Assembly (NCBI GenBank): GCA_964361705.1
Contig: CAYIBP010000003.1
Coordinates: 5,606 to 69,605, forward strand
DNA: 64,000 nt
Direction of reading: 5' to 3'
Source: an uncultured Candidatus Saccharibacteria bacterium
GTDB lineage: Bacteria > Patescibacteriota > Minisyncoccia > Phycocordibacterales > UBA9973
How positions within the stretch are numbered: position 1 is the first letter of the stretch; each line of letters begins with the position of its first letter. The notes below the pieces were generated by a model. That model was not told where the DNA came from, ran no database searches, and worked only from the letters and a program-made list of their open reading frames with translations. Position numbers and translations under genes: made by a program. Shown piece by piece: positions 10,698 to 58,545 of this stretch.

Positions 10698-10732
10698 CAA
10701 TAAAATAAAAAGACGCGGAATGCGTCTTTTTA
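10698..10732. terminator. Bidirectional intrinsic terminator between the 118-aa gene and rpsP
   Basis: AAAGACGC-ggaat-GCGTCTTT hairpin flanked by A-run and T-run (ttattttatttatt). Confidence 0.5.
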
Positions 10733-10760
10733 TTTTATTTATTCTCTAGCTATTACAGAA

Positions 10761-11117
10761 CTAGATATTGTCTATAAACTCGTTTGCTAGACTTAGCACA
10801 AGAGCAGCTTGCGCGTCAGTTAGATACTTGTAGCCTTTCTTTTTTCCTAATTTCTTCTCCATATCATTAGCTACTCTTTCCATCTTCCTTTCTGCTTTAT
10901 CTAGTTTATTTTTCTTTCCTGCTAAAGCAATCATATTGTCTATTCTGTTTAAGAGCTTCTTCTCATCAGGGGTACTGCCTGGAAATGCTTCAACGGTTGC
11001 TCTCATAGAAAGCAAATGCGCCATAGGATCAAATGGACCACCATAGGCTGCAGCAGAACCAAAACCCAAAACCATCATCATCGTAACCAATAAACTCGCA
11101 CCTAAGAACTTTTTCAT
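10761..11117 (-). CDS. Small secreted hypothetical protein
   Basis: 118 aa; signal peptide MKKFLGASLLVTMMMVLGFGSAAAYG; Lys-rich; no recognisable domain. Confidence 0.5.
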   Translation of the reverse strand: MKKFLGASLLVTMMMVLGFGSAAAYGGPFDPMAHLLSMRATVEAFPGSTPDEKKLLNRIDNMIALAGKKNKLDKAERKMERVANDMEKKLGKKKGYKYLTDAQAALVLSLANEFIDNI

Positions 11118-11262
11118 AAAATATAATTAGTTAAATTAATAATAAAAACATTTCGGAATATTATTTATATAGCCGATAGCATCATTATACACAATCATAT
11201 ATAATATGAAAACAACTTTAGATGTGGATAACCCACAACAGAGCTACTTATGGAATTAATAT

Positions 11263-12784
11263 GGATTTAAAACAGCAAATAAAGCCTAAATATATATTTT
11301 TAATATTAGTATCCTTGCTTGTTTTAGGTGGATTTTTTAGATTTTACCAACTAGAAAAAGCCCCATACTGGATGGATGAAGGATACACCATCAATGCCGT
11401 ACTTTCTGTCGAAGAAAAAGGCTCAACAATACTGGATTCCGGAGAAAAATATCGTTGCCCTACATACTGCCATATCACAGCTTATATAGCTGAACGCTTC
11501 GGTAACAATGCTTTTTCTTTTAGGTTTCTTTCTGTAATTGCAGGGATACTTTCTATAGCGCTGATTTTCTACACCACCAAGAGATTTTTTGGGAATATTG
11601 TTGCTATCACCTCGACCTTTTTTATAACCTTTTCATATTGGCAAATAGCCTGGTCTAGACAAGCCAGATGGTACACGCTTTTTGCTTTATTTTTTTGGCT
11701 AGCTATTTTGTTCTTTGATAAGTTTTTGAAAAGCGACAAAAGCAACTTGGAGAAATATTTATTTTTGACAAGCTCGCTGGTATTTTCTTTTCTTGCGTCT
11801 ATAACCCACGGACTTGGATACTTGATGCCTTTTATTTTTATGATTTGGTATTTTGTTGAAAAAGTCATTATAGAAAAGAAGGCGTCTTGGAAAAGATATG
11901 TCCTTGGATTCATATTAATTACAGGGACAATCCTTATTCTTGATTCCCTGCTAGGAACACGGTTTTACAAAGGTCTGCTACGAGGAATTAATCTTGATTT
12001 CAATCCGCATTATTATATTTACTTTTTGATTAAGAACTATTGGCTGTTTATTCTGCCTATGATATATACTTTATATACATCAATCAGAAAAAAGAAATTC
12101 ATCGTGGGAATTTTATTTTTTATTTTTCTAGCCTATTTACTGCCACTTTCTTTTTTAACAAAACTTGTAAATTATAGATACATTTTTCATGTTACCCCTA
12201 TACTGATCATTTTAGGCTCTTTAGGAATATACGACATATACTTGTTGATAAACAAAAAATGGCAGAAAATAGCTTTTATTTTGTGCATCATAATATTGTT
12301 CTTTTCTTTTGGTAAAGGAGTACTTGCCCCTAAAAATTTTTATTTTTTGGAATCAGACACTCCAAAGACATGGGGCAAGGGGGCGCATTATTCATACACT
12401 CCGCAACCAGACTGGAACAAAGCCTATGACTTTATAAAAAGTAATATGGAAAACGAAGATCTGGTGATCAGCAGTTTGCCTCATTTTAATAAAATATTCC
12501 TCGGCATACCAGGGTATTGGATAAAATATAATTACTTGGGTATAACAGGCAAAGAATCTAAGACAAAAGACAACAAAGAATTCTATGTGGGAGCTGAAAC
12601 AATAAACAATTTATCTGAACTTAAAGAATTAGCTTCAAAGAATCATGGATACATCGTACTGGATTTTATGGCAATAGATGAAAAAATACAGCCCGATATA
12701 TTGGAATACATCACAAACAACTTTGCACAAGTGTTTTACGACAGGATAAACACATATTCGCGAGTTTGGATATATAGATTTTAA
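11263..12784 (+). CDS. GT39/GT-C family glycosyltransferase (ArnT/PMT-like), polytopic membrane protein
   Basis: About 506 aa from the ATG at 11263 (the ORF track starts at 11222). Multiple TM helices; the N-terminal loop YWMDEGYTINAV carries a DE-type motif typical of ArnT/PMT-family GT-C enzymes. Confidence 0.7.
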
Positions 12785-12821
12785 TGTTTACTTTGCATAT
12801 AGCTCGTGATATAAACGCTAT

Positions 12822-13910
12822 ATGCAAGAAAAGATAAAGAACTGGTTTAAATCTATAAATTTTAGAGAATTTGCAAAACAAGAAGCAAAAAATCCTATAT
12901 TTTGGGCACGATTTTTTGCTTATGCTATTCCCCTAACCTTTTTGCTCTATATACTTTATATAAATTTTCTGCCCTTTGGATATGATAAAACTTTCGTCAT
13001 AAATGCTGGTTCAAAAAACGATATTGTTGTCAGTGAATTTTACTTGGAACCATCGACAAATCTTTCAGAAGACAAAGTAGATGAAAATGGAAAAACATAT
13101 CGCGAATTAAATGGTAGCGCATATGCAATATTTAAACCCAAAGCGATACTAAAAAACGCGACAGTAGCCATCACGACGGAAGACGAAGGAATATTTATAA
13201 ACTCCTCTCTTTTAGATTTTGATAAAGATGAAATAGAATGGGAAAATTCTTTTGATTTCAATGAAGGAATACCAAAAGGATGGGGTGGAAACGCGTTGAT
13301 GGTTGATGATGAACTCACCTTCAATGGAGAAAATTCGCGCATTTATCTGCCCTACTCCAGAGATAGATTTGAGGACGGGCCTTTTAGTTTATATATGGAG
13401 TGGTCTCCGACAGATGAAGACTCAAATTCCCAGCAGATAGTGGGACATTATAACTGGGAACTTTGGCAAAACAAAAACAATGTAGAATTCAGAGTGGGAA
13501 GAATGAATGACAATCAGGGACCCGCTTATTCTATTAAATACACTTTTGACCCTGATCTTTTTTTCTATGACACACATTCAGCTATCGCGATCTATAACCC
13601 AAGCGACAACGGCTACATAGAACTATACATAGATGATGAATATGCGGGTAGAACATACATAGGTAAAGATAAAATTTATAAATATTATGGTGATCAAAAT
13701 CTGACCATCGGATGGAGTCCTCACAACAATGGCAATAATTCATATTTTTCTGGCACTATATATGATCTGAGATTTGCACTTAAAAACATAATTACGCCAA
13801 ACAAAACTGTGACACTAGAAATGGAAGATAACGCTCCTCTAAAAATAGAACTTTTTTCAAACGGTACGGCAAAGTTGAGACAAATCAAGCTAAATGCAGT
13901 CAAACAATAA
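12822..13910 (+). CDS. Membrane-anchored concanavalin-A-like (LamG) domain protein
   Basis: 362 aa; N-terminal TM (IFWARFFAYAIPLTFLLYILYI); C-terminal FSGTIYDLRFALKN is a LamG hallmark. Confidence 0.6.
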   Translation: MQEKIKNWFKSINFREFAKQEAKNPIFWARFFAYAIPLTFLLYILYINFLPFGYDKTFVINAGSKNDIVVSEFYLEPSTNLSEDKVDENGKTYRELNGSAYAIFKPKAILKNATVAITTEDEGIFINSSLLDFDKDEIEWENSFDFNEGIPKGWGGNALMVDDELTFNGENSRIYLPYSRDRFEDGPFSLYMEWSPTDEDSNSQQIVGHYNWELWQNKNNVEFRVGRMNDNQGPAYSIKYTFDPDLFFYDTHSAIAIYNPSDNGYIELYIDDEYAGRTYIGKDKIYKYYGDQNLTIGWSPHNNGNNSYFSGTIYDLRFALKNIITPNKTVTLEMEDNAPLKIELFSNGTAKLRQIKLNAVKQ

Positions 13911-16071
13911 GTTACAAAATATTTGGATTCTATTGGATAGCTATTTCTTCATGCCATTCTTTAGCGCTCTAGCTCTAGTTTTTTTGTGTTTTTACATCGC
14001 TCCACTGGAGTTGTTTTATTTTAGTAAAGTATCATCCATCTACACAGCTATCATTTCCGCATTCATTGCTTTTTTTCTTTGGTTTAGAAGACTAGGAGAA
14101 GAAAGTAGAATAAAAAATCTTTTGACTGAATTAAATAAACATTTCTTTCTTTCAGGTTTAATAACCATAATTATCTTGAATCTCACGCCCTTTGGGAATC
14201 TCTCTTTTCCGACGTACATAAAATTAGTTTTAAACTTTGCGACATTTTTCAGCGGATTTATAACGATCTATGTCAATAAAAATTTATTAGTAAACATAGA
14301 ATCGGAAAGAAATGATGAAATACTTGTGGAGCAGGAGAAAATAAACGAATTCAGAAACAAATTTCCAAAAATAAATAAAATTCCATTATTTAGAAATGTT
14401 GCCAGATTTATTTACATAGAAAAATGGTGGTACTCTCTTTCTATAATCTTACTTTTGGTTATAGGTTTTGTGATAAGACTCTACAATCTTGGTGAACTGA
14501 GTCTATGGTGGGATGAACTCTTAACAGGAACTTACGTCACGAGAATTCTGGAAACAGGTTTACCAATATCACCGTCCGGTTTTGAATATTACTGGAGGGG
14601 AATATCATACCATTATCTTGTTTCTGGCTTTACATTTATTTTCGGAAACACTGAATTTTGGCTTAGATTCCCTAGTGTACTATTAGGAATTGGAACCATA
14701 ATACTATCTTTCTTGATAACGAAAAGAATAAACAAGATTCTAGCTCTTTTTATAGTAATTATTTTAACTTTTTCGATTTACAACGTAGAATATTCTCAAT
14801 TCGCTCGTTTCTATATAATGAACGCCTTTCTTTTTTTACTAAACATAGAATTCTTTTGGCGAGGATTCTTTGAGCAAAAAAAGTGGTTTAAGGTGCTCTC
14901 TATCATTACTTTCTTAATAATGATATTAACCGTACAGTTAGGATCAATATTTATTTCAGTAATATTTTATTACTTAATATATAAAATATCTTTAATAAAA
15001 ATTAAGAAATCAAGAATCAGAGACTTATTTAGTTTAAAATTATTTATACCTATAATGCTTTTTTTGAGTTTATATATAACTGGAAACCCTTTTGATTTGA
15101 TTGGTATCTATAAAGATCATCCTTATGAAGTGGATTTAATTAGTCAGGTAGATGGCAATGTAAGATACATTTTACCTAAAATACCCTACCCAGAATTTAA
15201 AAATATCGTATTACCATTTTTTAATGACTTTTACTGGCCAACTATTTTTTTCATCTTAGCATCAATTATTTCTTTATTTTTAATTTTTAACAAACTAAAA
15301 TTAAACAAAGAACTAGGTTACTCAGAATATATTCTGGGGATATCTTTTATATCACTAATACTCTTTGAGTTCGCTAATCCATTTTCAAAAGAACCTAGAC
15401 TATACCTAATGTTTGAACCTCTTTATATCATCCTATCAATGATGACTATTTTCATCATTGTAAAAGAAATCTTACAACTAAAGCATAAAAAAACATTGAT
15501 TATTCTGTCTTTCATTCTCCTTGCTTTATTTTTTAGTTCAAAACCATCCCTTTATGATGTGATGAATATTAGATACGGTGACAATGTGTCAAACGATCCA
15601 TTTAGAACTACTTGGGCTCAAGCGTATCGTTCCGATTCAAAAACCACGCTTGAATATTTAAAGAAAAATATAGAAGACGAAGACATTTGGATCAATACTC
15701 TTGAACCAGCATATTTTTATTTACAAAGAAATCCAGATTTTATTTTGAATCAAAATTACAAATGGAAAAACATGTGGCGAGAAGAAATTTTTACCGATAA
15801 AGATAAAAACTATATAGAAATAAGATATAACAGTATACTTATAAACACAATGGAAGACTTACAAAAAATCTTAAACAATAATACTAATAAAAATGTATGG
15901 CTCTTAGCAAACGGGCAAAACCTCGAAACATTATATACAAAACAATTAAATAAGGATTTTGTGGACTTTTTATCCGAAAATACAGAAAACGTTGTATATT
16001 CTTCTCCAGACGAAAGAAGCAAGCTTTTGCTTTTCCAAAAATTAAATCAATCCTTCTTGTTAAAGAAATAA
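13894..16071 (+). CDS. GT39/GT-C family glycosyltransferase (ArnT/PMT-like), second paralog
   Basis: 725 aa; at least 12 TM segments; LWWDELLTGTYVTRILETGLP loop motif; overlaps the upstream gene by 17 nt. Confidence 0.7.
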   Translation: MQSNNKLQNIWILLDSYFFMPFFSALALVFLCFYIAPLELFYFSKVSSIYTAIISAFIAFFLWFRRLGEESRIKNLLTELNKHFFLSGLITIIILNLTPFGNLSFPTYIKLVLNFATFFSGFITIYVNKNLLVNIESERNDEILVEQEKINEFRNKFPKINKIPLFRNVARFIYIEKWWYSLSIILLLVIGFVIRLYNLGELSLWWDELLTGTYVTRILETGLPISPSGFEYYWRGISYHYLVSGFTFIFGNTEFWLRFPSVLLGIGTIILSFLITKRINKILALFIVIILTFSIYNVEYSQFARFYIMNAFLFLLNIEFFWRGFFEQKKWFKVLSIITFLIMILTVQLGSIFISVIFYYLIYKISLIKIKKSRIRDLFSLKLFIPIMLFLSLYITGNPFDLIGIYKDHPYEVDLISQVDGNVRYILPKIPYPEFKNIVLPFFNDFYWPTIFFILASIISLFLIFNKLKLNKELGYSEYILGISFISLILFEFANPFSKEPRLYLMFEPLYIILSMMTIFIIVKEILQLKHKKTLIILSFILLALFFSSKPSLYDVMNIRYGDNVSNDPFRTTWAQAYRSDSKTTLEYLKKNIEDEDIWINTLEPAYFYLQRNPDFILNQNYKWKNMWREEIFTDKDKNYIEIRYNSILINTMEDLQKILNNNTNKNVWLLANGQNLETLYTKQLNKDFVDFLSENTENVVYSSPDERSKLLLFQKLNQSFLLKK

Positions 16072-16964
16072 AATATTCCTCCAATTGATGTCTGAATCAA
16101 CATTATAAAACGTGATAACAAAGAAATACTAAGAGATGCCTCTGCCGAAATACCAATGAAAGACAACAGAGATATCAAAGATAATTCATATACACCAATA
16201 GCATTCACAGAAATAGGTACGATACTTATTAATTGTATTACCAGATAAAAACCTGTAACTAACAAATAATCAGTGTTATATCCAAACATTAAGAGATAAA
16301 TCCATAGGCTTAGCGATCCAAGCAAGGGGTATATTATTGAAATTGACACAACTCTAAACCAATTTAAATTCATCTCTTTTATATGATTTTTAATTTTTAG
16401 AACAATTCCTTTCAATTTACTTGAAAAAAAGTAGATAATCAGAGCAAAAAGAAAAATAACAATAAATAAAAAGATAATTGAAATCTTTTTTACTTCTAAA
16501 TAAAAAAACGGCAAGATTTTATAAGACAGGAAAATTAAAAGAAGTAGTGTGCCAGCGATCCCCGACAATCTGTCTAATAAAACGGAGGTGAGGACCTTGG
16601 TCTTGCCCAATTCTGGTCCTAACTTTACAACCTTATAAGCATCACCTCCTATCGTGGAAGGTAAAAAATTACTGAAGAAATTACTCATCCAGTAGATTCT
16701 GAATAGTTTCCAAAACGGGTATTTTATCATCCCCTCCCATTTCAGAGTAGATAAAAATAATCCAGGTAAATATAAGAAAAAAGGAACAAGAATCAAATAA
16801 TTAACATTTGAAAACAATTTTATAGATTCTTCTAAGTCTATTTGACTTAAAACTAACCAAATAAACAGAAACATAAAACAAAGTTTTATAAAAAACCTGT
16901 GTTTAATTAGTAGTATTTTATATGGTTGTAAAAAATCAATTAATTTTTTCATATATTTTAGCAA
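16047..16964 (-). CDS. Flippase-like / lysylphosphatidylglycerol-synthase-TM-like (UPF0104) membrane protein
   Basis: 305 aa; polytopic; GGDAYKVVKLGPELGKTKVLTSVLLDRLSG resembles the UPF0104 domain. Confidence 0.55.
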   Translation of the reverse strand: MLKYMKKLIDFLQPYKILLIKHRFFIKLCFMFLFIWLVLSQIDLEESIKLFSNVNYLILVPFFLYLPGLFLSTLKWEGMIKYPFWKLFRIYWMSNFFSNFLPSTIGGDAYKVVKLGPELGKTKVLTSVLLDRLSGIAGTLLLLIFLSYKILPFFYLEVKKISIIFLFIVIFLFALIIYFFSSKLKGIVLKIKNHIKEMNLNWFRVVSISIIYPLLGSLSLWIYLLMFGYNTDYLLVTGFYLVIQLISIVPISVNAIGVYELSLISLLSFIGISAEASLSISLLSRFIMLIQTSIGGIFYFFNKKD

Positions 16965-17991
16965 GAGAAGTAATGTAATTATTTAAATCTTTACCTTTTA
17001 CATTATCCTTACCGTTGTGAATAAGTTTCAAATAAAGTTCTCCGTCAGATAGTAGGTATTTTATTTTGTTTGCTAAATCAGCAGAATTCTTAGATTGAAA
17101 GGTCAACACATTCCTTTTATCTTGTACCAAACTAGCCAAACTTTCAATATCAGAAACAATAACAGGCACACCAAACATCCAAGATTCATTTAGAACTATT
17201 GGATTTGCTTCACTTAGAGAAGAGATCACTAGCAAATCGATCTCGTTGTAAACATGCTCTACATCAGAAACGAAACCAAGAAATTTTATTCTGGAATCCA
17301 GATCCAGATCTCTTGATAAAGTTTTTAAGTTTAATAATTCTGGACCATCACCCGCAATAATCGCCTTATAATTAGTAGGTAAAAAAGACAAAGATTCTAT
17401 TAAGAATTTACATCCTTTTACTTCACTCAACCTACCGATAAAACCTATTGTATAATTGTCCTTTGGATAAAAATCAATATTAATAATATCAGAAGAGGCA
17501 GAGCACCTAACAAAATTATTCAACACATACAATTTATCTTTCTTGATTGATATATTTTTAAGTAAAAAATCTCTTATGTAGTCAGATACACAGATGACAC
17601 CGTTTATCCTTTTTTTACAGATTTTAAATAAGTTATTGTACAGACGATTGTTTATTAAAATATCTCCATGTTCATGGTGTATAAATTTTAAATCTCGAAA
17701 AATAAGAGATAAGATAATTCCAAAGTAAAACCCCTTACGATGATGAGTGTGTATAATATCTATCTTTTTGTTTTTAATTATAAAAAAAATATCTATGAGA
17801 GGAAAAAGATTAAATTTTGAATAGTTTTTCACTATTACATTATTCTTTTGTATTACTGGTTTATCAACAGGTTTGCGAATAAAATAATAAGTAAGTTGAA
17901 TATTGGGTATATTAAAATTCTTAATTAAAGAATCTACGATGGACTCTACGCCACCGAAACCATATTTATCAACTATATGTAAAACGTTCAT
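16936..17991 (-). CDS. GT4 (GT-B fold) glycosyltransferase
   Basis: 351 aa; C-terminal sugar-donor motif SLSEANPIVLNESWMFGVPVIVSD (E-X7-E type). Confidence 0.8.
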   Translation of the reverse strand: MNVLHIVDKYGFGGVESIVDSLIKNFNIPNIQLTYYFIRKPVDKPVIQKNNVIVKNYSKFNLFPLIDIFFIIKNKKIDIIHTHHRKGFYFGIILSLIFRDLKFIHHEHGDILINNRLYNNLFKICKKRINGVICVSDYIRDFLLKNISIKKDKLYVLNNFVRCSASSDIINIDFYPKDNYTIGFIGRLSEVKGCKFLIESLSFLPTNYKAIIAGDGPELLNLKTLSRDLDLDSRIKFLGFVSDVEHVYNEIDLLVISSLSEANPIVLNESWMFGVPVIVSDIESLASLVQDKRNVLTFQSKNSADLANKIKYLLSDGELYLKLIHNGKDNVKGKDLNNYITSLAKIYEKIN

Positions 17992-17994
17992 AAT

Positions 17995-19095
17995 TTATAG
18001 ATTTGAATATGCCACTAATAAATCATTATTTTCATAATTACTAATTATATTATTCCTCGTACTGATCACACCATCTAATAAAGCATTATTATCTCGTTCA
18101 AGTCTAGAAAGGATATTTTGTAAATCACCTTTGTTTTTATAAAACAAACCATTAAAATTGTCACGTAGCAACTCATGGTTACATTCAATATCATTAGCTA
18201 TCGTGATTTTATCCATAAGCAGATAGTGTATCATTTTCATACTAGGTTGTCTGCCATATATTCTAGGTAAAACGCCCGCTATAGATTTTTTGATCAAAAA
18301 ATTAACATGGGGTACTGATAATTTACCAGGCAAGAAAACTTTTGCATTTAATTCGAGTGTATTTATCAAATCATTGATATTTTCTGAAATCTTCCCAACA
18401 ATGACTAATTTAAACTCGCTTTTAACTTGTGAAAAAAGATTTAAGAAGTTTTCAATACCTTGGTATGATTCAGAATTTCCAACATAAATAAGATATTTTT
18501 CATTTTTTTTATTATCAATAATATAATCTTCAATCTTCAAATCTAATTTATCATAAAAAAGTACAGTTTTTTTATCTTTAAAAACTGGATCCTTTGAATA
18601 AATCTGCCAATTCAAAATTATTAAATCGCAATTTTGGATAATCTTTCTTTCTAAAAAAAGAATAAAACTCCTAAAGGGAACTTCTTTTCTGGAAATTTCT
18701 AGATTATCTATAATGCGATTATGTAAGTCATAGATTAATTTAACTTTTTTTGATACAAAAAAAGAAAGGATATATCCAATAAAAGCAGCCTCAAAATCTT
18801 CACAGTGAACAAAACTATACTGTCTGGATAATATCAAATACAATCCTTTACAAAAAATCAAAAAATCTAGAATTATTCGAGATAAATTTATTTTTCCAAC
18901 ACCTATCGTGGGTTTAAAAAAACTAATAGTCCTGTATAATCTTGTATTTTTTAGCTCAATATCTTTCCCAAGATTATAAGTAAGTAAATCAATTTCATAT
19001 TTTTCACTTAATTTGCTAACCATCGAATACACACGAAGAGAAGAACCTTTTTCTTCGTAAAATGGTGTTGTGGCAATTACCAATACCCTCTTCAT
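17995..19095 (-). CDS. GT4-like glycosyltransferase
   Basis: 366 aa with GT-B architecture; adjacent to the GT4 gene and 4 nt-coupled to galE. Confidence 0.6.
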   Translation of the reverse strand: MKRVLVIATTPFYEEKGSSLRVYSMVSKLSEKYEIDLLTYNLGKDIELKNTRLYRTISFFKPTIGVGKINLSRIILDFLIFCKGLYLILSRQYSFVHCEDFEAAFIGYILSFFVSKKVKLIYDLHNRIIDNLEISRKEVPFRSFILFLERKIIQNCDLIILNWQIYSKDPVFKDKKTVLFYDKLDLKIEDYIIDNKKNEKYLIYVGNSESYQGIENFLNLFSQVKSEFKLVIVGKISENINDLINTLELNAKVFLPGKLSVPHVNFLIKKSIAGVLPRIYGRQPSMKMIHYLLMDKITIANDIECNHELLRDNFNGLFYKNKGDLQNILSRLERDNNALLDGVISTRNNIISNYENNDLLVAYSNL

Positions 19096-20042
19096 CTTTT
19101 TTTATTGTATGCTTTTAGGGTGCTTTCGACCATTTCTAGCAAGCCGAATTTTGGTTGCCAGTTTAATATTTTTTTTGCTTTATCAAAGGATGCCACTACG
19201 CTGGTAAGATCGCCCAATCTTTTCTTTATAAACCTGTATTTTACTTTTTTACCAGAGACTTTTTCAAACATATTCATTATTTCTAAAACAGAATAACCTT
19301 TTTCACTTCCTAGATTAAAAACACCAGAACCTTTCAGATTCATGGCTTTAATATGCGCATCGGCTATATCGGATACATGCACATAATCCCTGACACCTGT
19401 GCCATCTACTGTATCGTAATCATTGCCAAATATTTCAAGTTGTTTTTTATTACCAAAAAGCACATCGGCTATAACATTAAAAATATTTCTTACATTTGGA
19501 CCTATATAGTTCAATCCTTCATAACCTGCTACATTGAAATATCTCAGGGCGACATATCTCATGCCAGACAGATCAGCATGCCATTTCAATAAATCTTCGC
19601 CCATAAGCTTTGTAAAACCATAAAAATTAGCGGGGTTGCATTCGTGTGCTTCATTTATTTTTTTCACCTTTGGTTCGCCATATACTGCCGCAGAAGAAGA
19701 GAAAATAAATTGTTTGATCTTTAGTCTTGGTGCAATCTCCAAGAGATTCATCATGCCTTTAATATTCTCATCATACAAATCAGGTCTTTCCATAGATTCA
19801 CCAACATCCTTTCTAGCAGCGAAATGCATCAGCACATCAAATGCTTTATTTTTTAAATTCTTTTCAAAAGATGTAAAATTCAAAATATTTACTTTGTGAA
19901 AAACGGCTCTAGAATCCACATTTTCCTTTCTACCCCTTGAAAGATCATCCACCACTGTGACAGAATAACCGGCATCCACGAGCTTTTTCACCACTACGCT
20001 ACCAATATATCCGGCTCCCCCTGTGACAAGTATTTTCTTCAT
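19092..20042 (-). CDS. galE: UDP-glucose/UDP-hexose 4-epimerase (NAD-dependent SDR)
   Basis: KILVTGGAGYIGS Rossmann motif and catalytic YGFTK (YxxxK); 316 aa. Confidence 0.85.
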   Translation of the reverse strand: MKKILVTGGAGYIGSVVVKKLVDAGYSVTVVDDLSRGRKENVDSRAVFHKVNILNFTSFEKNLKNKAFDVLMHFAARKDVGESMERPDLYDENIKGMMNLLEIAPRLKIKQFIFSSSAAVYGEPKVKKINEAHECNPANFYGFTKLMGEDLLKWHADLSGMRYVALRYFNVAGYEGLNYIGPNVRNIFNVIADVLFGNKKQLEIFGNDYDTVDGTGVRDYVHVSDIADAHIKAMNLKGSGVFNLGSEKGYSVLEIMNMFEKVSGKKVKYRFIKKRLGDLTSVVASFDKAKKILNWQPKFGLLEMVESTLKAYNKKR

Positions 20043-20043
20043 T

Positions 20044-20997
20044 TTATACTTCTATTACCTCTCTTATATAATATCTTTTTTCATACGGGGAATTGTTTAG
20101 GTTGAGTTTAATCAAAAGATCGATGACAAGCCCAAAAGAAAAGAGCATTATGCCAGAAGTAAGGAAAAAGAAAGTCAGAAGACCCCAACCGTTTCTGTTG
20201 AGACTAAGTCCCAAGAAAAATTTGCCGTATAAAGTCCAAAGTCCAGAAAGAAAACCCAACAAAAGTAGAACAAAACTAATCGAACCAAAAAGATGCATCG
20301 GTCTTTGTGAGTATTTGTGTATAAACCATATAAAAATAAGATCAATCAATCCTTTTATTGATTTCTTCCAATTGTACTTGCTTTTGCCATACTCTCTCTT
20401 GCGATCATTTACAAACACCTCACCAATAGAAAAACCTTTCCAACGCAAAAGAGCGAGGATGTATCTGTGCATCTCGCCTCCTATATCCAGAGATTTTACC
20501 GCTTCCCTCTTGTAAACACGAAAAGAACATCCGGTGTCATGTACGATGTCCTTGATAAGTATCTTTCTAAACCATCTACCTATGCGAGTGAAGACTTTTA
20601 TCATATTTCTATCTTTGCGAACTTTTCTCCACCCAGCCACCACATCCAGATCTTCGTCGTGCATTTTTTTTAAAAGCAAATGAATATCACGCGGATCATT
20701 TTGCCCGTCACCATCCATGGAGATTACTATATCCCCCATTGCAACTTTAAAACCAGCATCAAAAGCTGTGGCTTGGCCATAATTGCGATTGAGATTTATT
20801 ATTTTTGCCTTATTTAAAGATTTAAGTTCTTCAAGTGATCTATCAGTACTGCCGTCATTTATGTAGATAATCTCGTATTTTGAACTTAAAGAGGCCAATT
20901 CACTGCTTATTTCTTGGTGCAGTGATAAGATGTTTCCTTCTTCGTTATATATAGGTACAACAACAGAAAAATTAAGGCCTTCTTTATCAGAATTCAT
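20044..20997 (-). CDS. GT2 polyprenyl-phosphate glycosyltransferase (ArnC/GtrB/DPM1-like) with C-terminal TM helices
   Basis: VVVPIYNEEGNI, INDGSTD and DGDGQNDP (DXD) motifs, plus two C-terminal TM helices. Confidence 0.85.
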   Translation of the reverse strand: MNSDKEGLNFSVVVPIYNEEGNILSLHQEISSELASLSSKYEIIYINDGSTDRSLEELKSLNKAKIINLNRNYGQATAFDAGFKVAMGDIVISMDGDGQNDPRDIHLLLKKMHDEDLDVVAGWRKVRKDRNMIKVFTRIGRWFRKILIKDIVHDTGCSFRVYKREAVKSLDIGGEMHRYILALLRWKGFSIGEVFVNDRKREYGKSKYNWKKSIKGLIDLIFIWFIHKYSQRPMHLFGSISFVLLLLGFLSGLWTLYGKFFLGLSLNRNGWGLLTFFFLTSGIMLFSFGLVIDLLIKLNLNNSPYEKRYYIREVIEV

Positions 20998-21088: not shown

Positions 21089-23056
21089 ATGAAAGAAAAA
21101 CATACAAAAAAGCCGATGAAGGTGTCGGGCATTATATCTGTTTCTTCAAAGGGTACTGGGTATGTCTCGGTAGAGGGTAAAGACAAAGACATAGAGATAG
21201 ATTTCGCTCGTTTGAATACTGCTCTCCATGGAGATACGGTAGAGATATGTATCCATTCTAAGGGCAAAGACAATACTAGGGGCGAAGTGATAAAAGTAAT
21301 TTCTCGCGCAAAGACAGGATTCTCTGGTGTTCTGCAAAGAGAAAAAGGCGTGTATTTTCTGAAACCTGATGACACAAAGATGTATGCCGACATATCAATA
21401 CCAGAAATGTTTTTAAATAAAGCAAAAGCTGGAGAAAAAGTGTATGCAGAAATAATGTCTTGGCAAGATTCTTCCAGATTACCCGAAGGCAAAGTATTAA
21501 AAATACTCGGCAAGCCGGGCAACAACGATACCGAAATGCACGCTATCGCCATAGAAAAAGGTTTCGATAACGATATGCCAGAGAGAGTCAAAGAAGAAGC
21601 AAAGAAAATAAAAACTCTCGGAATGCAAACAAAAGATTACGCAGACAGAAAAGACTTCAGAAAGATTCTGACATTTACTATCGATCCCGAAGATGCAAAA
21701 GATTTTGATGATGCGATATCCATTAGAGAGATAAAAGTAGGCGACCCTGCTCTACCCGAAGGAGGCTATGAGATAGGGGTACACATAGCAGATGTAACAC
21801 ATTTCGTACGAGAAGGTGGCACGATGGATGAAGAAGCCAAATCACGAGGTACTTCTGTGTATTTAGTGGACAGAACAATACCGATGTTACCAGAAGAGAT
21901 CTCCAACGATCTGTGTTCCCTGCTACCACACAAAGACAGGTTTGCAATGAGCGCAGTTTTTATGATGAACAAAAACGCAGAAGTAAAAGGAGAATGGTTC
22001 GGCCGCACGGTAATACATTCGCAAAAGAGATTTACATATGAGGAGGCGGAAAAATCTATAAATGATCAAAACGCACATCTGCACAGGGAACTACATATAC
22101 TAAACACTCTTGCAAAGAAATTAACCGAGGAGAGATTTAGATTAGGCGCGATGTCCCTAGAACAAGAAGAAGTGAAATTCGTACTAGATAAAAACGGTAA
22201 ACCTTTAAAGGTTATAAAAAAAATACGAGGAGATTCTAATAAACTCATCGAGGAATTTATGTTGCTCGCCAACAAAAAAGTCGCGGAATTATTTTCTGCC
22301 AAGGTAGATAAAACAGAAAAAGACAATGGGGTATTTATATACCGAATACACGATAGACCAGAGAAAGAAAAGGTTATTAATCTAGCTTTCTTTTTACGCA
22401 GTCTCGGACATAAAATCTCAATAATAAATGATCAAATTCCAAAGCAAGAGATAAACAAAATTTTACAAAAAATATCCGGGCAAAACGGAGAAGATACGAT
22501 TCGAAAGATGATCATAAGGTCTATGGCAAAAGCAATATATTCCACAAAAAATATTGGGCATTATGGTCTGGCATTTGATTATTACGCTCACTTTACTTCA
22601 CCTATCAGACGATATCCGGATATGGTAGCGCACAGACTCCTTGCTGATTTTCTGAAAACAGAAAGCAAACATCAGAAAGCAAACAAAGAAAAAGTAGCAG
22701 AGTTTCAGAAAATAGCAATGCGATCTTCTGAGCGCGAGAAATACGCTGCCGACGCAGAAAGAGCCTCGGTAAAATACAAACAAGTGGAATATATGTCTCT
22801 TAGAATTGGCAAAACTTTCTCCGGTACGATCAGCGGTGTCACCGAATGGGGAATGTTTGTAGAAGAACACGAAACTAAATGCGAAGGTTTGGTGCGTCTG
22901 CGCGAGATGAAAGATGATTTTTATATTTTCAATGAAAAAAAGATGGAGCTGGTAGGAGAAAAACACAAAAAGAAATACAGTCTGGGAGACAAAGTAAAAA
23001 TAAAAGTGAAAGACGCAAACCTAGAAAGAAAAACAATAGACTACGAACTCGTATGA
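21089..23056 (+). CDS. rnr: Ribonuclease R (RNB-family 3'-5' exoribonuclease with a C-terminal S1 domain)
   Basis: 655 aa with an RNB catalytic region (DPEDAKDFDDAIS, HIADVTHFV) and a C-terminal S1-like segment. Confidence 0.9.
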   Translation: MKEKHTKKPMKVSGIISVSSKGTGYVSVEGKDKDIEIDFARLNTALHGDTVEICIHSKGKDNTRGEVIKVISRAKTGFSGVLQREKGVYFLKPDDTKMYADISIPEMFLNKAKAGEKVYAEIMSWQDSSRLPEGKVLKILGKPGNNDTEMHAIAIEKGFDNDMPERVKEEAKKIKTLGMQTKDYADRKDFRKILTFTIDPEDAKDFDDAISIREIKVGDPALPEGGYEIGVHIADVTHFVREGGTMDEEAKSRGTSVYLVDRTIPMLPEEISNDLCSLLPHKDRFAMSAVFMMNKNAEVKGEWFGRTVIHSQKRFTYEEAEKSINDQNAHLHRELHILNTLAKKLTEERFRLGAMSLEQEEVKFVLDKNGKPLKVIKKIRGDSNKLIEEFMLLANKKVAELFSAKVDKTEKDNGVFIYRIHDRPEKEKVINLAFFLRSLGHKISIINDQIPKQEINKILQKISGQNGEDTIRKMIIRSMAKAIYSTKNIGHYGLAFDYYAHFTSPIRRYPDMVAHRLLADFLKTESKHQKANKEKVAEFQKIAMRSSEREKYAADAERASVKYKQVEYMSLRIGKTFSGTISGVTEWGMFVEEHETKCEGLVRLREMKDDFYIFNEKKMELVGEKHKKKYSLGDKVKIKVKDANLERKTIDYELV

Positions 23057-24924
23057 GGCATAATTTTAAACAAAAATTAAAAGTTGTTTTTTGGTTTATT
23101 ATCGCTATATTTCTCGGCATATCTGTCACCTCCTTTGCTTTTGAAAAACTATCTAAAGAAAAAGAATACCAATACAAAGAAACACAAGCTACAGCACTAG
23201 AGTCCATAGAGAAAGATACAACTCCAAAATATTTTTATGTTACAAAAGATGCGAGCTCAAAACCAAAAGTCGGAGCGAAAGCTTATCTTGTGGGAGATTT
23301 GGATACAGGTGAAATCATTCTTGAAGAAAATAAAGACGCAGAATTCCCCATAGCTTCAGTTTCAAAGCTCATGACAGCAACCCTTGCCAAAGAACTCATG
23401 TCTCCAGAGGATTTGGCAATCGTATCTAAAAAAGCCCTAAGCACACAAGGTACAAATGGAGATTTAAAAATTGGAGAAAAAATAAAAATAGAAGACCTTG
23501 TATATCCTCTACTTCTAGAATCCAGTAATGATGCCGCAGAGGTAATAGCTGAATATTTTGAAAGAGAATATTTTTTGAAAAAGATGAATCAATTGGCAGA
23601 GAAATTAAATCTTACCAAGACGGCATTTGACGATCCGAGCGGGCTTTCTGCAAAAAACAGATCCACAGTGTACGAGATATTTAAACTTACAGGATATATA
23701 AAAGAAAAAAATCCGGAAATACTTGATCTGACAAAAAACAAAAGTTTCAAAAACAAAAATCATCACTGGTTTAGCAACAATCAATTTTTAAGCGAAGATG
23801 GATACAATGGAGGAAAAAGCGGATACACAGACCCGGCAATGCAGACAGTAGTTTCCACTTTTGCGCTTCCTCTTTCGGAAACAGGAACACGCAATATAGC
23901 TATCACGTTACTTCAAAGCAAAGACCGTTTTAAAGATGTACAAAAAATATTAGAATATTTAAATCAAAATACATATTATGGAGGCAAAGCTGACGCAGAG
24001 AGCGCTTGGGTCAAACTACGCACAGATGTAGCTCCAGTTTACGAGAGGGATTTCGTATCGCTCACCTTCGGAGGAGACATGATGCTTGACCGCGGAGTAG
24101 AAACTTCCGTAAACAAAAATTTCGACGGAAATTTTTCCGCATTGTTTGAAAATTTGGGTATTTTGAAAAAAACAGACATATCATTTGCAAACTTGGAAGG
24201 CCCTGCATCAGACATAGGCAAAGACAGACAAAACTTATATTCGTTTAGAATGCACCCTTCCACTATACCCGCTTTGAAAGGCGCAGGGATCTCGGTGGTG
24301 TCAGTAGCGAACAACCATGTAGGAGATTGGGGACGAGATGCATATCTGGACACATTAGAAAGATTAAAAGAAAATGAAATATTTTACACTGGAGGCGGTG
24401 TGAACAGAATCGAAGCAGAACAACCAATCATAATAGAAAAATACGGGATCAAGATAGGATTTCTTGCCTTTTCAGATGTTGGACCAGATTGGATGCAAGC
24501 CGACGAAGACAAAGCAGGCCTCTTGATAGCACGCGATCCTCGTTTTGAAGAAATAATAACTAACGCCTCAAAACAAGTAGACCACCTAGTCGTCTCATTT
24601 CACTTTGGAGACGAATACAAGACAATACACAATGCTCGCCAAGAAGACCTGGCGCATAAAGCCATAGACTCCGGAGCAAAGATAGTGATAGGACATCACC
24701 CGCATGTAATACAAGACACAGAAATTTATAAAAATGGATTTATAGCCTATTCGCTGGGCAATTTTATATTTGACCAAAGCTGGTCCAAAGACACTATGAG
24801 AGGCATGCTCTTAGAAATAAAACTAGGAAGAGATGGAAATATGACTATAAAGAAAAACATCTCAAACTTGAGCAACTTTTTCCAACCAGAAAAAACGATT
24901 GCAGGTAAAGAGGAAAAATTATAA
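23053..24924 (+). CDS. Fusion of a D-alanyl-D-alanine carboxypeptidase (S11/PBP5-like) and a CapA/PgsA-type metallophosphoesterase
   Basis: The N-terminal half has SVSKLMT (SxxK), ESSND (SxN) and GKSGYT (KTG-like). The C-terminal half has FANLEGP, SVANNHVGDWG and GHHPHV CapA motifs. ATGA overlap with rnr. Confidence 0.8.
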   Translation: MRHNFKQKLKVVFWFIIAIFLGISVTSFAFEKLSKEKEYQYKETQATALESIEKDTTPKYFYVTKDASSKPKVGAKAYLVGDLDTGEIILEENKDAEFPIASVSKLMTATLAKELMSPEDLAIVSKKALSTQGTNGDLKIGEKIKIEDLVYPLLLESSNDAAEVIAEYFEREYFLKKMNQLAEKLNLTKTAFDDPSGLSAKNRSTVYEIFKLTGYIKEKNPEILDLTKNKSFKNKNHHWFSNNQFLSEDGYNGGKSGYTDPAMQTVVSTFALPLSETGTRNIAITLLQSKDRFKDVQKILEYLNQNTYYGGKADAESAWVKLRTDVAPVYERDFVSLTFGGDMMLDRGVETSVNKNFDGNFSALFENLGILKKTDISFANLEGPASDIGKDRQNLYSFRMHPSTIPALKGAGISVVSVANNHVGDWGRDAYLDTLERLKENEIFYTGGGVNRIEAEQPIIIEKYGIKIGFLAFSDVGPDWMQADEDKAGLLIARDPRFEEIITNASKQVDHLVVSFHFGDEYKTIHNARQEDLAHKAIDSGAKIVIGHHPHVIQDTEIYKNGFIAYSLGNFIFDQSWSKDTMRGMLLEIKLGRDGNMTIKKNISNLSNFFQPEKTIAGKEEKL

Positions 24925-42551: not shown

Positions 42552-43712
42552 ATGTCCCATAATAATTTAAACTCAAAAAACAAATTGATAAGCGAAAGTC
42601 TAACGGTCCGACTAAACACGCTGGCAAATCAACTCAAATCTGAAGGCAAGAAGATAATAAACCTCACTGCAGGAGAACTCGATTTCCCTACTCCGTCTTA
42701 TATACAACAAGAAGTAAAGAACAAACTGTCTCTGAACAAATACACTCCCACCACAGGGTTTCTGGATTTGCGTCAAGCTTTGGCAAGACAGGTATTCAAA
42801 GAATATAAATGGCAAGTCACACATCAAAATGTGGCAGTAACATCAGGATGCAAACAAGCGCTCTTTGAGAGTTTGTTCGCAATACTCAAAAAGGACGATG
42901 AAGTCATAGTCCCATCACCTGATTGGGTGACATACAGATACCAGATCATTTTAAATGATGCTGTGCCTGTGATCGTGCCACTCGATAAAGATTTCGATCT
43001 GGATGTGGAAAAAATAAAAAAAGCGATCACTAAAAAAACAAAAGCAATAATACTAAATAGTCCCAATAACCCCACCGGCTCTATATATAGTACAAAAAAA
43101 CTTCTGGAATTAAAGAAAATTTTAAAAGAAAAAGATATATATGTAATAGTAGATGACACTTACAGCAAAATCGTGTATGACGCGTCTTATAAATCTCCGG
43201 CGCTTTTTATGCCAGATGAAAGATATCTGATCTTGGTAAACAGTTTTTCTAAAAGCCAAGCACTGACTGGCTGGAGGATAGGATATGTAATAGCCGACAA
43301 AGAAATCATAAATGCAATATCTTCTTATCAGAGCCACACCACAGGCAATGCTCCAATACTGTCGCAGATCGCTGCGCAAAAAATATTGGAAAAAGGAGAC
43401 AAGACTGAAAGATTTGTAAAAGTACTAAAGAAACAAAGAGACCTAGCTGATAAAATATTAAAAAATATATCTGGGATTTCCTACACAGTTCCAAAAGGCG
43501 CTTTTTATTATTTCATAGATGTGTCTAAGATCGAAAAAAACACAGAAAAGTTTTGCGAAGAACTTCTGAAATCGGGATTGGCGTTGGTTCCCGGTGAAGC
43601 TTTTGGTTATCCCGGATTTGTGAGATTGTCATTTTCAACTTCGACAAAAAATCTGATCGAGGGTATTAAAATATTTAAAAAGTTCTGCGAAAACTATAAA
43701 AACCATGATTAA
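42552..43712 (+). CDS. Class I/II PLP-dependent aminotransferase (aspartate aminotransferase-like)
   Basis: PLP-lysine motif SFSKSQALTGWRIGY. The start is moved to the ATG at 42552 because the ORF-track start at 42468 overlaps tRNA-Ser. The stop overlaps the ppcA ATG. Confidence 0.85.
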   Translation: MSHNNLNSKNKLISESLTVRLNTLANQLKSEGKKIINLTAGELDFPTPSYIQQEVKNKLSLNKYTPTTGFLDLRQALARQVFKEYKWQVTHQNVAVTSGCKQALFESLFAILKKDDEVIVPSPDWVTYRYQIILNDAVPVIVPLDKDFDLDVEKIKKAITKKTKAIILNSPNNPTGSIYSTKKLLELKKILKEKDIYVIVDDTYSKIVYDASYKSPALFMPDERYLILVNSFSKSQALTGWRIGYVIADKEIINAISSYQSHTTGNAPILSQIAAQKILEKGDKTERFVKVLKKQRDLADKILKNISGISYTVPKGAFYYFIDVSKIEKNTEKFCEELLKSGLALVPGEAFGYPGFVRLSFSTSTKNLIEGIKIFKKFCENYKNHD

Positions 43713-45207
43713 AATTCCAAGAACAATGGCAACACAGCATCCTGATAATGCCAAAGCTCCGTATTGGGAACAAGATGGCGACACTTTTGTGAGCGCAAAA
43801 GAAGAACCAGCAGAATGCGTAGATGCATTTCAAAATCTAAATGTAGAAGAATTTATGTGGGACTGGGAAGGCAAATTTGCAGAAGAAGCGGTGATAGACA
43901 GGTTGTTTCATAAATATTTTGATTACTTCAAAGAAAACCAGCTTGGACTAAAGAAAAGACTCACTTTTCGCATACCAAACATTTGGCAGGAAAAAGGCTA
44001 CAGTCTGATCCGCGCATTGATGGTAATATTGACCAGTGAAGATTTTGCGCGAGATTTGAAATTTCATTCACCTCCCTTGTTTGAAGTCATTTTGCCGATG
44101 ACAGAGAATGCAAAACAACTTATCTTTATTCAGAAATCATTCCAAGAATTGGCAAAGATAAAATCAAAGATATTCAACCAGTCTGAAAAAAATGCTCAAT
44201 ATATAAATATAATTCCCCTTTTTGAAGATGTACACACGCAAATAAATGCAAAGAGAATTCTGATAGAGTACATAAAACTCCATAAAAGAACTTTTGGCTT
44301 CAAGCCAAAATATTTGCGCGTATTTATAGCTCGCAGTGACCCAGCCATGTCTTCAGGCATGGTATCCACAGTGCTTGCCAACAAGATAATCCTCTCTGAT
44401 CTTTGCGAATTAGAAAAAGAATCCGGCATACCCATATACCCTATCTTGGGCGCAGGCTCTCTGCCTTTTCGCGGAGGACTTTCACCTTTGACCATGAAAG
44501 AATTTGATGAAGAGTACAGAGGAATACATACCATAACAATCCAATCAGCTTTCAGATACGACTACAAACTCTCTTCAGTCAAAAAAGCCATAAAATATTA
44601 CAATCAGCAAACTATCCGCAAGCCAGAAATCATTTCTAGCGAAGAGCGAAGCAAGTTACTGAGAATAATAAACTTGTTTGAAAAAGAATATAAGGCGAAT
44701 CTAAAAAAGATCTTGCCTGATGTTTCTTTTGTATTCAATTCTTTCCCAAGAAGAAGGGAGAGGCACCTGCATATAGGGCTCCTCTCTTATGGTAGGAAAA
44801 TACATGGTGTAAATATGCCACGCGCTATCACATTTACCGGATCTTTTTATTCATTGGGTATTCCGCCAGAGTTTTTAGACGTAGGAGCTATTTTATCACT
44901 CACAGACAAGGAAGTAGCCTTGGTAAATAAATTTTATAAAAATACCAAAGGTGCCCTTTCGCATGCTGGACGATTTTTAAATCGAAACAATCTGCGCAAA
45001 CTAGGTAAAAAATCAAAAAGTTGGGCAAAAATTGAAAAAGATATAGAACAAACCGAGAATTTTCTAAAGATTAAATTCAAAACTCAAAGTAAAGACGACA
45101 TAGCTCACCTTAAACTCACAGGCATGCTTCTGAAATCAAAGAAAAATCCGAAAAAGATAAAGCAAATCATAAATAAAACCGGAATCCTGAGAAAAAGTCT
45201 AGGATAA
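43705..45207 (+). CDS. ppcA: Archaeal-type phosphoenolpyruvate carboxylase
   Basis: N-terminus MIKIPRTMATQHPDN is the hallmark start of atPEPC; about 500 aa is typical for the archaeal-type enzyme. Confidence 0.8.
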   Translation: MIKIPRTMATQHPDNAKAPYWEQDGDTFVSAKEEPAECVDAFQNLNVEEFMWDWEGKFAEEAVIDRLFHKYFDYFKENQLGLKKRLTFRIPNIWQEKGYSLIRALMVILTSEDFARDLKFHSPPLFEVILPMTENAKQLIFIQKSFQELAKIKSKIFNQSEKNAQYINIIPLFEDVHTQINAKRILIEYIKLHKRTFGFKPKYLRVFIARSDPAMSSGMVSTVLANKIILSDLCELEKESGIPIYPILGAGSLPFRGGLSPLTMKEFDEEYRGIHTITIQSAFRYDYKLSSVKKAIKYYNQQTIRKPEIISSEERSKLLRIINLFEKEYKANLKKILPDVSFVFNSFPRRRERHLHIGLLSYGRKIHGVNMPRAITFTGSFYSLGIPPEFLDVGAILSLTDKEVALVNKFYKNTKGALSHAGRFLNRNNLRKLGKKSKSWAKIEKDIEQTENFLKIKFKTQSKDDIAHLKLTGMLLKSKKNPKKIKQIINKTGILRKSLG

Positions 45208-46274: not shown

Positions 46275-48805
<2,531 letters not shown>

Positions 48806-48809
48806 TTTA

Positions 48810-49421: not shown

Positions 49422-49427
49422 GGTTTT

Positions 49428-50039: not shown

Positions 50040-50052
50040 AATAAAATATAAT

Positions 50053-50709: not shown

Positions 50710-50734
50710 ATACTGAAACTCTTTTCAATCAAAA

Positions 50735-51535: not shown

Positions 51536-51592
51536 ATTTAATAACTTTATTATAACAAATATAGAGCTTGAAGACCAACAGATACGTCCCGC

Positions 51593-54850: not shown

Positions 54851-54895
54851 TATTATACAATAATTAGAGAAAAGTCAAATTTTATATTTGGTCTT

Positions 54896-58539: not shown

Positions 58540-58545
58540 GGAAAA

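Follow-up and report, generated by a model that had tools for sequence, protein, structure and literature searches.

The 64,000-nucleotide stretch of DNA described here (the window) comes from the metagenome-assembled genome (MAG) of an ultra-small bacterium (Patescibacteria), obtained from a 0.1-µm-filtered Hainich groundwater metagenome, and the locus of interest lies on a contig of 87.8 kb. Positions 11222 to 20997 hold eight genes that very probably form a lipid-carrier-dependent extracytoplasmic glycosylation cassette: a polyprenyl-phosphate glycosyltransferase of family GT2, two cytoplasmic GT4 enzymes, a UDP-hexose 4-epimerase, a UPF0104 membrane protein, two glycosyltransferases of the GT-C fold and a membrane-anchored lectin-like protein. 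A more specific version is put forward tentatively, at slightly less than an even chance, by analogy with the Wps pathway of Lactococcus lactis: an oligosaccharide built on polyprenyl monophosphate would be transferred en bloc. Glycosylation on the outer face of the membrane through a lipid carrier had already been proposed in a preliminary description of this DNA. The core of that proposal is upheld by homology, predicted structure and synteny; transfer of a single sugar, which it also contained, gives way here to en-bloc transfer of an oligosaccharide as the favoured version.

A gene cassette found in bacteria and archaea

All eight open reading frames (ORFs) claimed for this region were found between 11222 and 20997. 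They are densely packed, neighbours being separated by no more than 37 nt or overlapping by 4–29 nt, and they form two convergent operons, one of three genes on the plus strand (11222–16071) and one of five genes on the minus strand (20997–16047), which overlap tail to tail by 25 nt. A terminator scan found none between the two operons, and the sole convincing hairpin (10699–10739) lies outside the locus. Promoter-like sites were not enriched, with 58 counted against 52±7 in shuffled sequence.

Is the linkage of these genes a matter of chance? With the same set present in 12 further loci, the linkage goes far beyond chance, and the synteny rules out an accidental adjacency of the eight genes. 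The related loci were retrieved through homologues of the second GT-C enzyme (GT-C2) or of the lectin-like protein and were then compared gene by gene, which gives, with the window, a comparison set of 13 distinct loci. Their hosts belong to several lineages of Patescibacteria and to the archaea, the latter being represented by L008 from a nanoarchaeon of the same aquifer, L006 from a methanogen MAG and L015 from the cultured Methanosarcina sp. KYL-1. A single operon with the order GT2–GT4–(modifying enzymes)–GT4 is present in all 13 loci. In 11 of them a flippase gene comes next on the same strand, and the operon converges on GT-C1–(lectin)–GT-C2. The cassette genes of the relatives include S-adenosylmethionine-dependent methyltransferases (L004, L006, L007, L010, and L015), a pyruvyltransferase (L006), a hexapeptide acyltransferase (L004) and extra GT2s (L020 and L021); decorating genes of this type are typical for lipid-linked repeat units.

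The flippase slot of the window is occupied by the last gene of the minus-strand operon (16047–16964), which encodes a protein with about eight transmembrane (TM) helices. The UPF0104-type, flippase-like membrane protein of the preliminary description is confirmed as a member of this family by PF03706 (LPG_synthase_TM; 118.7 bits, threshold 33.4), and it also matches TIGR00374 (60.5 bits, threshold 43.2). Each of the 13 loci has exactly one flippase-like gene, either UPF0104 (five loci) or a Wzx-type Polysacc_synt gene (eight loci), and never both. In L007 and L009, the wzx gene is found downstream of GT-C2 and on the GT-C2 strand. Wzx is the canonical flippase for oligosaccharide-lipids. This mutually exclusive replacement is genomic support for the proposal that UPF0104 is a putative flippase for a lipid-linked glycan, and the alternation offers natural genetic evidence for UPF0104/MprF-type proteins taking the place of Wzx in a glycan pathway. 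The flippase assignment itself has been a prediction since 2015, when UPF0104 was proposed to act as a flippase in glycosylation on the grounds that, in archaea, it neighbours an AglD-like GT2 and a PMT/STT3-like protein (PMC5898192).

Components on the two faces of the membrane

The minus-strand operon opens with the GT2 gene (20044–20997), which encodes a GtrB/ArnC/DPM1-type glycosyltransferase. The protein matches Glycos_transf_2 (PF00535) with 102 bits and aligns over its full length (residues 8–295) with GtrB sll0501 (5EKE, E 4.7e-31); residues 10–315 align with ArnC structures, the E. coli enzyme being 29% identical (E 3e-38). Two C-terminal TM helices (236–254 and 274–292) complete the polyprenyl-phosphate architecture that had been attributed to it. 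The conserved DXD motif, DGDGQNDP, aligns with DADLQ(D/N)PP of GtrB and ArnC. From these features GT2 is a putative transferase of a sugar from a nucleotide sugar onto polyprenyl phosphate. It is the best-conserved component of the cassette: a GtrB-like GT2 occurs in 13 of 13 loci, with orthologues 41–80% identical to that of the window in 11 of the 12 related ones and a divergent copy (23%) in L007. A weak match to AglJ was also seen.

Could another enzyme start the glycan? No initiating phosphoglycosyltransferase (Bac_transf or WecA-type) was found in any of the 13 loci or among the window ORFs of at least 100 aa that were scanned, which leaves the GtrB-like GT2 as the only candidate initiator. 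PF02397 has no match in any locus. The sole match to PF00953, in L002, is a 352-aa MraY encoded in a murG-ftsW-mraY cluster outside the cassette.

The following gene (19092–20042, minus strand) encodes GalE, which exceeds the equivalog threshold of TIGR01179 (327 bits, cut-off 262) and is 39% identical to the E. coli enzyme. The catalytic Ser, Tyr, and Lys are kept, SSSAAVYG and YGFTK aligning with E. coli S124 and Y149/K153. In E. coli GalE, Y299 excludes N-acetylated substrates. The corresponding gatekeeper position is Val282 here, and a residue smaller than tyrosine makes epimerisation of UDP-GlcNAc/GalNAc conceivable; activity on these substrates is therefore possible. GalE is a variable accessory, since an epimerase gene is present in only four of the 13 loci (the window, L006, L015, and L020).

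Next come two cytoplasmic glycosyltransferases of the GT-B fold, also on the minus strand: GT4b (17995–19095), which is of a divergent type, and GT4a (16936–17991), which overlaps the start of the UPF0104 gene by 29 nt. Both match Glycos_transf_1 (threshold 26.4), GT4a with 112 bits and GT4b with 53.7 bits. For the N-terminal Glyco_transf_4 domain, GT4a (58.9 bits) is above the threshold and GT4b below it. Among solved structures, the nearest relatives of GT4a by sequence are PglH, PglA, and WbnH, followed by BshA, TarM, and PimA; its E-values of 1e-12 to 1e-10 hardly set the first three apart from BshA and TarM. PglH, PglA, and WbnH extend lipid-linked glycans. GT4a also matches Agl16 weakly, and a sequence search of solved structures returned no relative of GT4b. 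A GT4a-type gene is found in all 12 related loci; orthologues of GT4b occur only in L002, L003, and L011, and a different GT4 takes that slot elsewhere. The preliminary description had GalE and both GT4s supplying nucleotide sugars, which suits GalE as a donor supplier and not the GT4s, which are transferases.

The plus-strand operon begins with GT-C1 (11222–12784; 520 aa), an ArnT/PMT_2-like enzyme that matches PMT_2 with 40.1 bits (cut-off 26.1). Orthologues with 28–56% identity were found by BLAST in nine of the 12 related loci; the GT-C1-type gene of L008 was recognised only through that of L006 (L006_GTC1) and the A1 profile. GT-C2 (13894–16071; 725 aa) has no Pfam match. It is paralogous to GT-C1 (26% identity over about 550 aa, E 2e-17), and its AlphaFold model (pLDDT 80.5, pTM 0.84) has GT-C glycosyltransferases as 26 of its first 28 Foldseek matches, with ArnT as the best (E 1.7e-6). 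The other two are chains of the XPR1 phosphate exporter, with E-values of at least 0.35 and a probability of 0.10. On the paralogy and the predicted model, GT-C2 is assigned to the GT-C fold, which bears out the earlier view of the large membrane proteins. The fold comparison is the informative one; searches with GT-C1, GT-C2, and a 24-sequence GT-C2 profile against the sequences of solved structures gave nothing meaningful. The GT39 label given to both proteins is not sustained, because neither has PF02366 or a MIR domain, and they are better described as ArnT/PMT_2-like.

In the model of GT-C2, the GT-C core is preceded by an N-terminal extension of four helices and followed by an outer alpha/beta domain at the C-terminus. 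In the extension (residues 1–175; 13894–14420), four predicted TM helices and a long amphipathic helix precede the core. It is kept in the homologues P0002 (70% identity over 721 aa), P0011, and P0015, and is truncated in a public gene call of 649 aa (P0001).

Both paralogues have the DE-type loop that had been noticed earlier, in the form of a W-x-D-E motif: WMDE at residues 50–53 of GT-C1, directly after its first TM helix, and WWDE at residues 205–208 of GT-C2. The motif lies about 10 residues past the first core helix in every GT-C1 and GT-C2 orthologue examined, and W205-W206-D207-E208 is nearly invariant across the GT-C2 family. By the positive-inside rule it is predicted to face the outside, at the site of the GT-C catalytic acidic residue. 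An hhalign comparison of the GT-C2 profile with E. coli ArnT places D207/E208 on D31/E32 with a non-significant E-value of 0.17, which makes this pairing of the two DE motifs no more than suggestive.

Between the two GT-C genes lies a gene (12822–13910) for a lectin-like protein of 362 aa, with a TM helix (residues 26–48) and an ectodomain modelled with a pLDDT of 91.2. The beta-sandwich of this ectodomain has a predicted ConA/LamG fold and matches solved lectin and carbohydrate-binding module (CBM) domains. The family is narrow, with 263 representative clusters among 1.84 billion proteins and 119 clusters at 90% identity, and all of its members are annotated as "hypothetical". Its members are 40–60% identical across classes of Patescibacteria (the candidate phyla radiation, CPR) and a nanoarchaeon. 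In all nine loci that carry the gene, GT-C2 lies downstream of it and a GT-C1-type gene upstream of it; both GT-Cs flank it directly in five (the window, L002, L003, L011, and L020), and one to four short or inserted ORFs intervene in L008, L009, L010, and L021. The cassette thus defines a small family of membrane-anchored lectin-like proteins adjoining GT-C2. Some relatives (P0161, P0162, P0172, P0198, and others) are 575–927 aa long and have two to five tandem ConA-like domains.

The folds and families of the components, their catalytic motifs, their membrane topology, and a gene order with modular replacement are the observed ground on which a pathway can be drawn.

The proposed pathway, its alternatives and its setting

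How might these proteins work together? GalE would provide a donor of the UDP-Gal type, possibly UDP-GalNAc, and the GtrB/ArnC-like GT2 would put the first sugar on polyprenyl phosphate at the cytoplasmic face. GT4b and GT4a would lengthen this product to a lipid-linked oligosaccharide, which UPF0104, or Wzx in relatives, would move across the membrane. Outside, the GT-C paralogues would take the flipped glycan as donor, one of them polymerising or priming and the other ligating it to a final acceptor, which may be a wall or surface polymer or a surface protein. The lectin-like protein would bind and present the glycan or set its chain length. An oligosaccharide is favoured because the GT4s are part of the GT2 operon, because decorating enzymes and Wzx occur in relatives, and because there is no phosphoglycosyltransferase. 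We infer the sequence of the reactions, an oligosaccharide as donor, which sugars are involved, how the two GT-Cs share the work, what the lectin-like protein does, and the kind of acceptor.

Several points weigh against this pathway. Every step of it is drawn from homology and gene order. The presence of GT-C2 or the lectin-like protein in the related loci is given by construction, because the loci were found through them, and independent evidence comes only from the other genes occurring together with them. Characterised GT-Cs of the ArnT/PMT_2 type use monosaccharide donors. Among the UPF0104 relatives with experimental support, MprF moves modified phospholipids, and the GpgSDF case is linked to glycolipids that a GT4 makes; neither substrate is a polyprenyl-linked oligosaccharide. 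With one TM helix and a ConA fold, the lectin-like protein is not a homologue of Wzz or WpsH. GT-C2 and the GT4s are much more variable than GT2, GT-C1, and the lectin-like protein, a contrast that could equally reflect two semi-independent modules. Finally, the genome could hold a gene for an initiating phosphoglycosyltransferase at some other place, just as WecA is encoded away from many O-antigen clusters.

Which other pathways would suit the same genes? The strongest alternative, a somewhat unlikely one, is a lipoglycan route of the kind known for phosphatidylinositol mannosides (PIM) and lipomannan. At the inner face, the GT4s would build a di-glycosyl lipid on a primer of diacylglycerol, phospholipid or another lipid, UPF0104 would flip it, and outside the GT-Cs would add single sugars from a polyprenyl-phosphate-hexose made by GT2, the lectin-like protein binding the growing chain. 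The mycobacterial combination of PimA/PimB' with Ppm1 and PimE/MptA/MptB follows the same logic. Such a route would agree with the head-group-modified lipids that are the supported or proposed substrates of UPF0104 proteins (MprF; GpgF, with the GT4 GpgS), with the overlap of the UPF0104 and GT4a genes, and with the monosaccharide donors of known ArnT/PMT-like GT-Cs. It would also fit a division into two modules, with GT2, GT-C1, and the lectin-like protein as a conserved trio and GT-C2, the GT4s, and the flippase as the variable part. GT4a weakly matches monoglucosyl-diacylglycerol synthase, processive diacylglycerol glucosyltransferase, the lipoteichoic acid-anchor enzymes IagA/BgsA, and PimA; however, its scores for glycolipid synthases are far under the family cut-offs. 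Moreover, Wzx, which serves as flippase in most of the loci, is not known to flip diacylglycerol glycolipids, and the polyprenyl-phosphate-sugar would need a second flippase, of which none is encoded. The methyl-, pyruvyl-, and acyltransferases and extra glycosyltransferases of the relatives also imply a more elaborate cytoplasmic product than this route would require.

Protein O-glycosylation with single sugars, as in the Pgf, PMT, or GtrB/PgtC2 systems, was the reading of the preliminary description and is quite unlikely. Here GT2 and GalE would make polyprenyl-phosphate-Gal(NAc), UPF0104 would flip it, and the GT-Cs would modify Ser/Thr of surface proteins with different specificities; the GT4s would belong to a separate cytoplasmic glycan. 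The Streptococcus mutans Pgf operon does combine a GT2, an epimerase, and two GT-Cs, and such systems are served by flippases of varied families (PMC11127046). GT2 matches the PgfS model NF047588 with an E-value of 6e-38, but the score of 130.8 bits is far under the equivalog cut-off of 500, and PgfM1 and PgfM2 are YfhO-family rather than PMT_2 proteins. This reading also leaves the GT4 pair, which is present in every locus, without a role, and an epimerase is carried by only four of the 13 loci; in addition, the window has no Ser/Thr-rich candidate acceptor, and the pilins are distant and unlinked. A last alternative, in which one GT-C-like protein is a translocator of lipid-linked sugars like Haloarcula Agl23 and UPF0104 has another role, is highly improbable. 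In proteoliposomes, purified Agl23 moved a lipid-linked oligosaccharide across the membrane, and the protein rescued yeast rft1 (PMC11182771). The only NCBIfam match of GT-C2 is to the Agl23 model TIGR03663 ("flippase activity-associated"; E 1e-11), at 44.6 bits, far under the cut-off of 126. Two points speak against a translocator: both paralogues have a nearly invariant DE motif at the outer face, as is typical for catalytic GT-Cs, and every locus already has a flippase-like gene.

What could the acceptor be? The preliminary description had named the pilins or the LamG protein. The pilins can be set aside as unsupported, for they are encoded about 28 kb away, in a pilus cluster at 48–64 kb, and no relative has them linked to the cassette. 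The lectin-like (LamG) protein is an unlikely acceptor, having a well-folded, highly conserved ectodomain with no Ser/Thr-rich region; as a conserved component encoded between the GT-C genes, it is more likely an accessory glycan-binding subunit. A scan of the window for Ser/Thr-rich candidate acceptors returned only a spurious antisense ORF. A weak hint of a wall-associated glycan target comes from secreted PG_binding_1 and CAP (PF00188) proteins, whose genes recur beside the cassette and are usually divergent from GT-C1 (L004, 17152–18993; L009, 4326–8186; L010, 1910–5391; L011, 1321–1677; L020, 20598–21116; L021, 5256–6868). In the window, this slot (10761–11117, minus strand) instead holds an unrelated small secreted Lys-rich protein of 118 aa with a signal peptide, whose gene points away from GT-C1. 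It is only possibly part of the locus and, among the relatives, is kept in L002 alone (57% identity, same position).

The type IV pilus cluster itself spans 48293–63992 and contains N_methyl pilins (48810–50039 and 54896–55976), a prepilin peptidase (50735–51535), PilC (57331–58539), PilT-/PilB-like ATPases (58546–61427), and PilO/PilM (61831–63992). Within it, 51593–54850 encodes a 1085-aa protein that combines a right-handed beta-helix with an LCAT/lipase-like alpha/beta-hydrolase domain and is possibly a host-directed surface enzyme.

Upstream of the cassette, the flank consists of the housekeeping genes dnaG, rpoC, rpoB, trmD, khpA, and rpsP; downstream are rnr and a DacC–CapA fusion. The latter (23053–24924) is a single 623-aa protein in which a Peptidase_S11 domain (D-Ala-D-Ala carboxypeptidase) is joined to a PGA_cap (CapA-like) domain. 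Elsewhere in the window, an archaeal-type phosphoenolpyruvate carboxylase (43705–45207; PEPcase_2, E 4e-141) is encoded on this bacterial contig. The G+C content is 0.28–0.31 over 14–20 kb of the window and 0.35–0.43 in the flanks. Each relative has different flanking genes, and genes for Fic, NYN/WYL, HicA, Bro-N/RhuM, and resolvase proteins lie beside or inside several copies of the cassette. Together with the archaeal occurrences, the low G+C, the differing flanks, and the mobile and defence neighbours suggest that the cassette is horizontally mobile, also between domains.

The separate proposals can be combined into one far-reaching picture: ArnT/PMT_2-type GT-Cs acting as a polymerase/ligase pair for polyprenyl-monophosphate oligosaccharides, in an obligate complex with a lectin subunit, with UPF0104 as a genuine, Wzx-interchangeable flippase and the whole module moving between domains. 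The conjunction of all these is unlikely. Were it true, the cassette would be the main route to a surface glycopolymer that episymbionts display to their hosts. To our knowledge, GT-Cs of the ArnT/PMT_2 type have so far been described only as monosaccharide transferases. The lifestyle of Patescibacteria and DPANN archaea is one of attachment to other cells, and we know of almost nothing reported about the glycans on their surfaces. For the synthesis of such a glycan the cassette offers a concrete candidate that is compact and widely conserved, and its variant in the cultured Methanosarcina sp. KYL-1 makes experiments feasible.

Comparison with known systems

How much of this cassette has been seen before? 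GT2, UPF0104, and a PMT/STT3-like protein are already known as a core triad in an archaeal neighbourhood, and three-component and multicomponent systems have been well documented. Literature searches for this cassette in CPR and DPANN organisms returned nothing specific, and four aspects appear to be new: a seven-gene cassette with paired ArnT-like GT-Cs, a dedicated family of lectin-like partners, the mutual exclusion of UPF0104 and Wzx, and the spread over Patescibacteria, DPANN archaea, and methanogens. A scan of a genome collection with the GT-C2 profile gave seven loci only; the back-translated patterns are very specific, and the scan therefore permits no taxonomic census.

The mycobacterial pathway to PIM, lipomannan, and lipoarabinomannan employs GT4s at the inner face (PimA and PimB'), the GT2 Ppm1, which makes polyprenyl-phosphate-mannose, and the GT-Cs PimE and MptA/B, which extend the glycan outside. 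GT4s, a polyprenyl-phosphate-sugar GT2, several GT-Cs, and glycan-binding accessory modules are therefore common to both. By contrast, the mycobacterial genes are dispersed and not gathered in one cassette, and the flippases of that pathway are unknown.

In archaea, an AglD-like GT2, UPF0104 (arCOG00899), and the PMT/STT3-like arCOG00563 have been described as neighbours (Makarova et al. 2015, PMC5898192); Agl22/Agl23 and the AglJ-initiated Dol-P-glycans belong to the same comparison. These three families are found together here as well, and the cassette too occurs in archaea. In the archaeal neighbourhood, however, UPF0104 is often fused to the GT2 (AglD), and its description includes neither paired GT-Cs nor a pair of GT4s nor a lectin-like partner. 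Archaeal N-glycosylation differs in ending with AglB, which is absent from the cassette.

The Pgf operon of Streptococcus mutans, which encodes PgfS, PgfM1, PgfE, and PgfM2, carries out protein O-glycosylation (PMC5856776, PMC12041528). It likewise unites a GT-A polyprenyl-phosphate-sugar synthase, a 4-epimerase, and two GT-Cs in one locus, with transfer at the outer face. The Pgf operon lacks GT4s, a flippase gene, and a lectin-like gene; its GT-Cs are of the YfhO family and not PMT_2-like, and the epimerase is dispensable in most versions of the cassette.

The cassette also resembles the three-component extracytoplasmic systems GtrA/GtrB/Gtr*, GacI-J-K-L, CsbB/YfhO, ArnC/ArnEF/ArnT, and Citrobacter ORF12-15 (PMC11127046). 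A linked polyprenyl-phosphate-sugar synthase, flippase, and GT-C are syntenic in all 13 loci, GT2 resembles GtrB/ArnC over its full length, and the GT-C fold is like that of ArnT. Domains of the CBM type that bind the acceptor glycan are known from Citrobacter ORF12, EmbC, and AftD (PMC11127046), where they act in cis, whereas the cassette has a CBM-like protein in trans. The known systems add one sugar to a pre-made polymer and have no obligatory cytoplasmic GT4s. The cassette, in contrast, has two GT-Cs, two GT4s, and a separate lectin-like gene, and its candidate flippase is UPF0104 instead of an SMR (GtrA), MATE, or ArnEF protein.

The Wps pathway of L. lactis, which makes the polysaccharide pellicle, is a "multicomponent glycosylation system" comprising WpsA/B, WpsC-F, WpsG, WpsI, WpsH, and WpsJ (PMC9574508). 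A GacI/GtrB-type GT2 primes undecaprenyl monophosphate, cytoplasmic glycosyltransferases extend the product, and a flippase exports the C55-P-oligosaccharide, which the GT-C polymerase WpsI uses as substrate; WpsJ is a GT-C ligase to the wall polymer and WpsH a bitopic accessory (PMC9574508). The cassette shares a GT2 that would prime the carrier, cytoplasmic glycosyltransferases that would extend the glycan, a putative flippase, two GT-C enzymes, an accessory membrane protein, and the lack of a phosphoglycosyltransferase, and the two correspond one-to-one in component count and operon logic. The likeness of the GT-C pair to WpsI/WpsJ is drawn from fold class and gene content, not from sequences. 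The candidate flippase of the window is UPF0104, whereas Wps, like eight relatives of the cassette, has Wzx. Its accessory is a single-pass ConA-fold lectin and not a two-TM Wzz-like protein such as WpsH, it has no GacJ/WpsB-like partner, and it contains no rhamnan genes, so that the acceptor differs. The hosts are different as well, being Patescibacteria, DPANN archaea, and methanogens. The cassette leaves current models in place and brings new lineages and component families under the Gtr and Wps paradigms.

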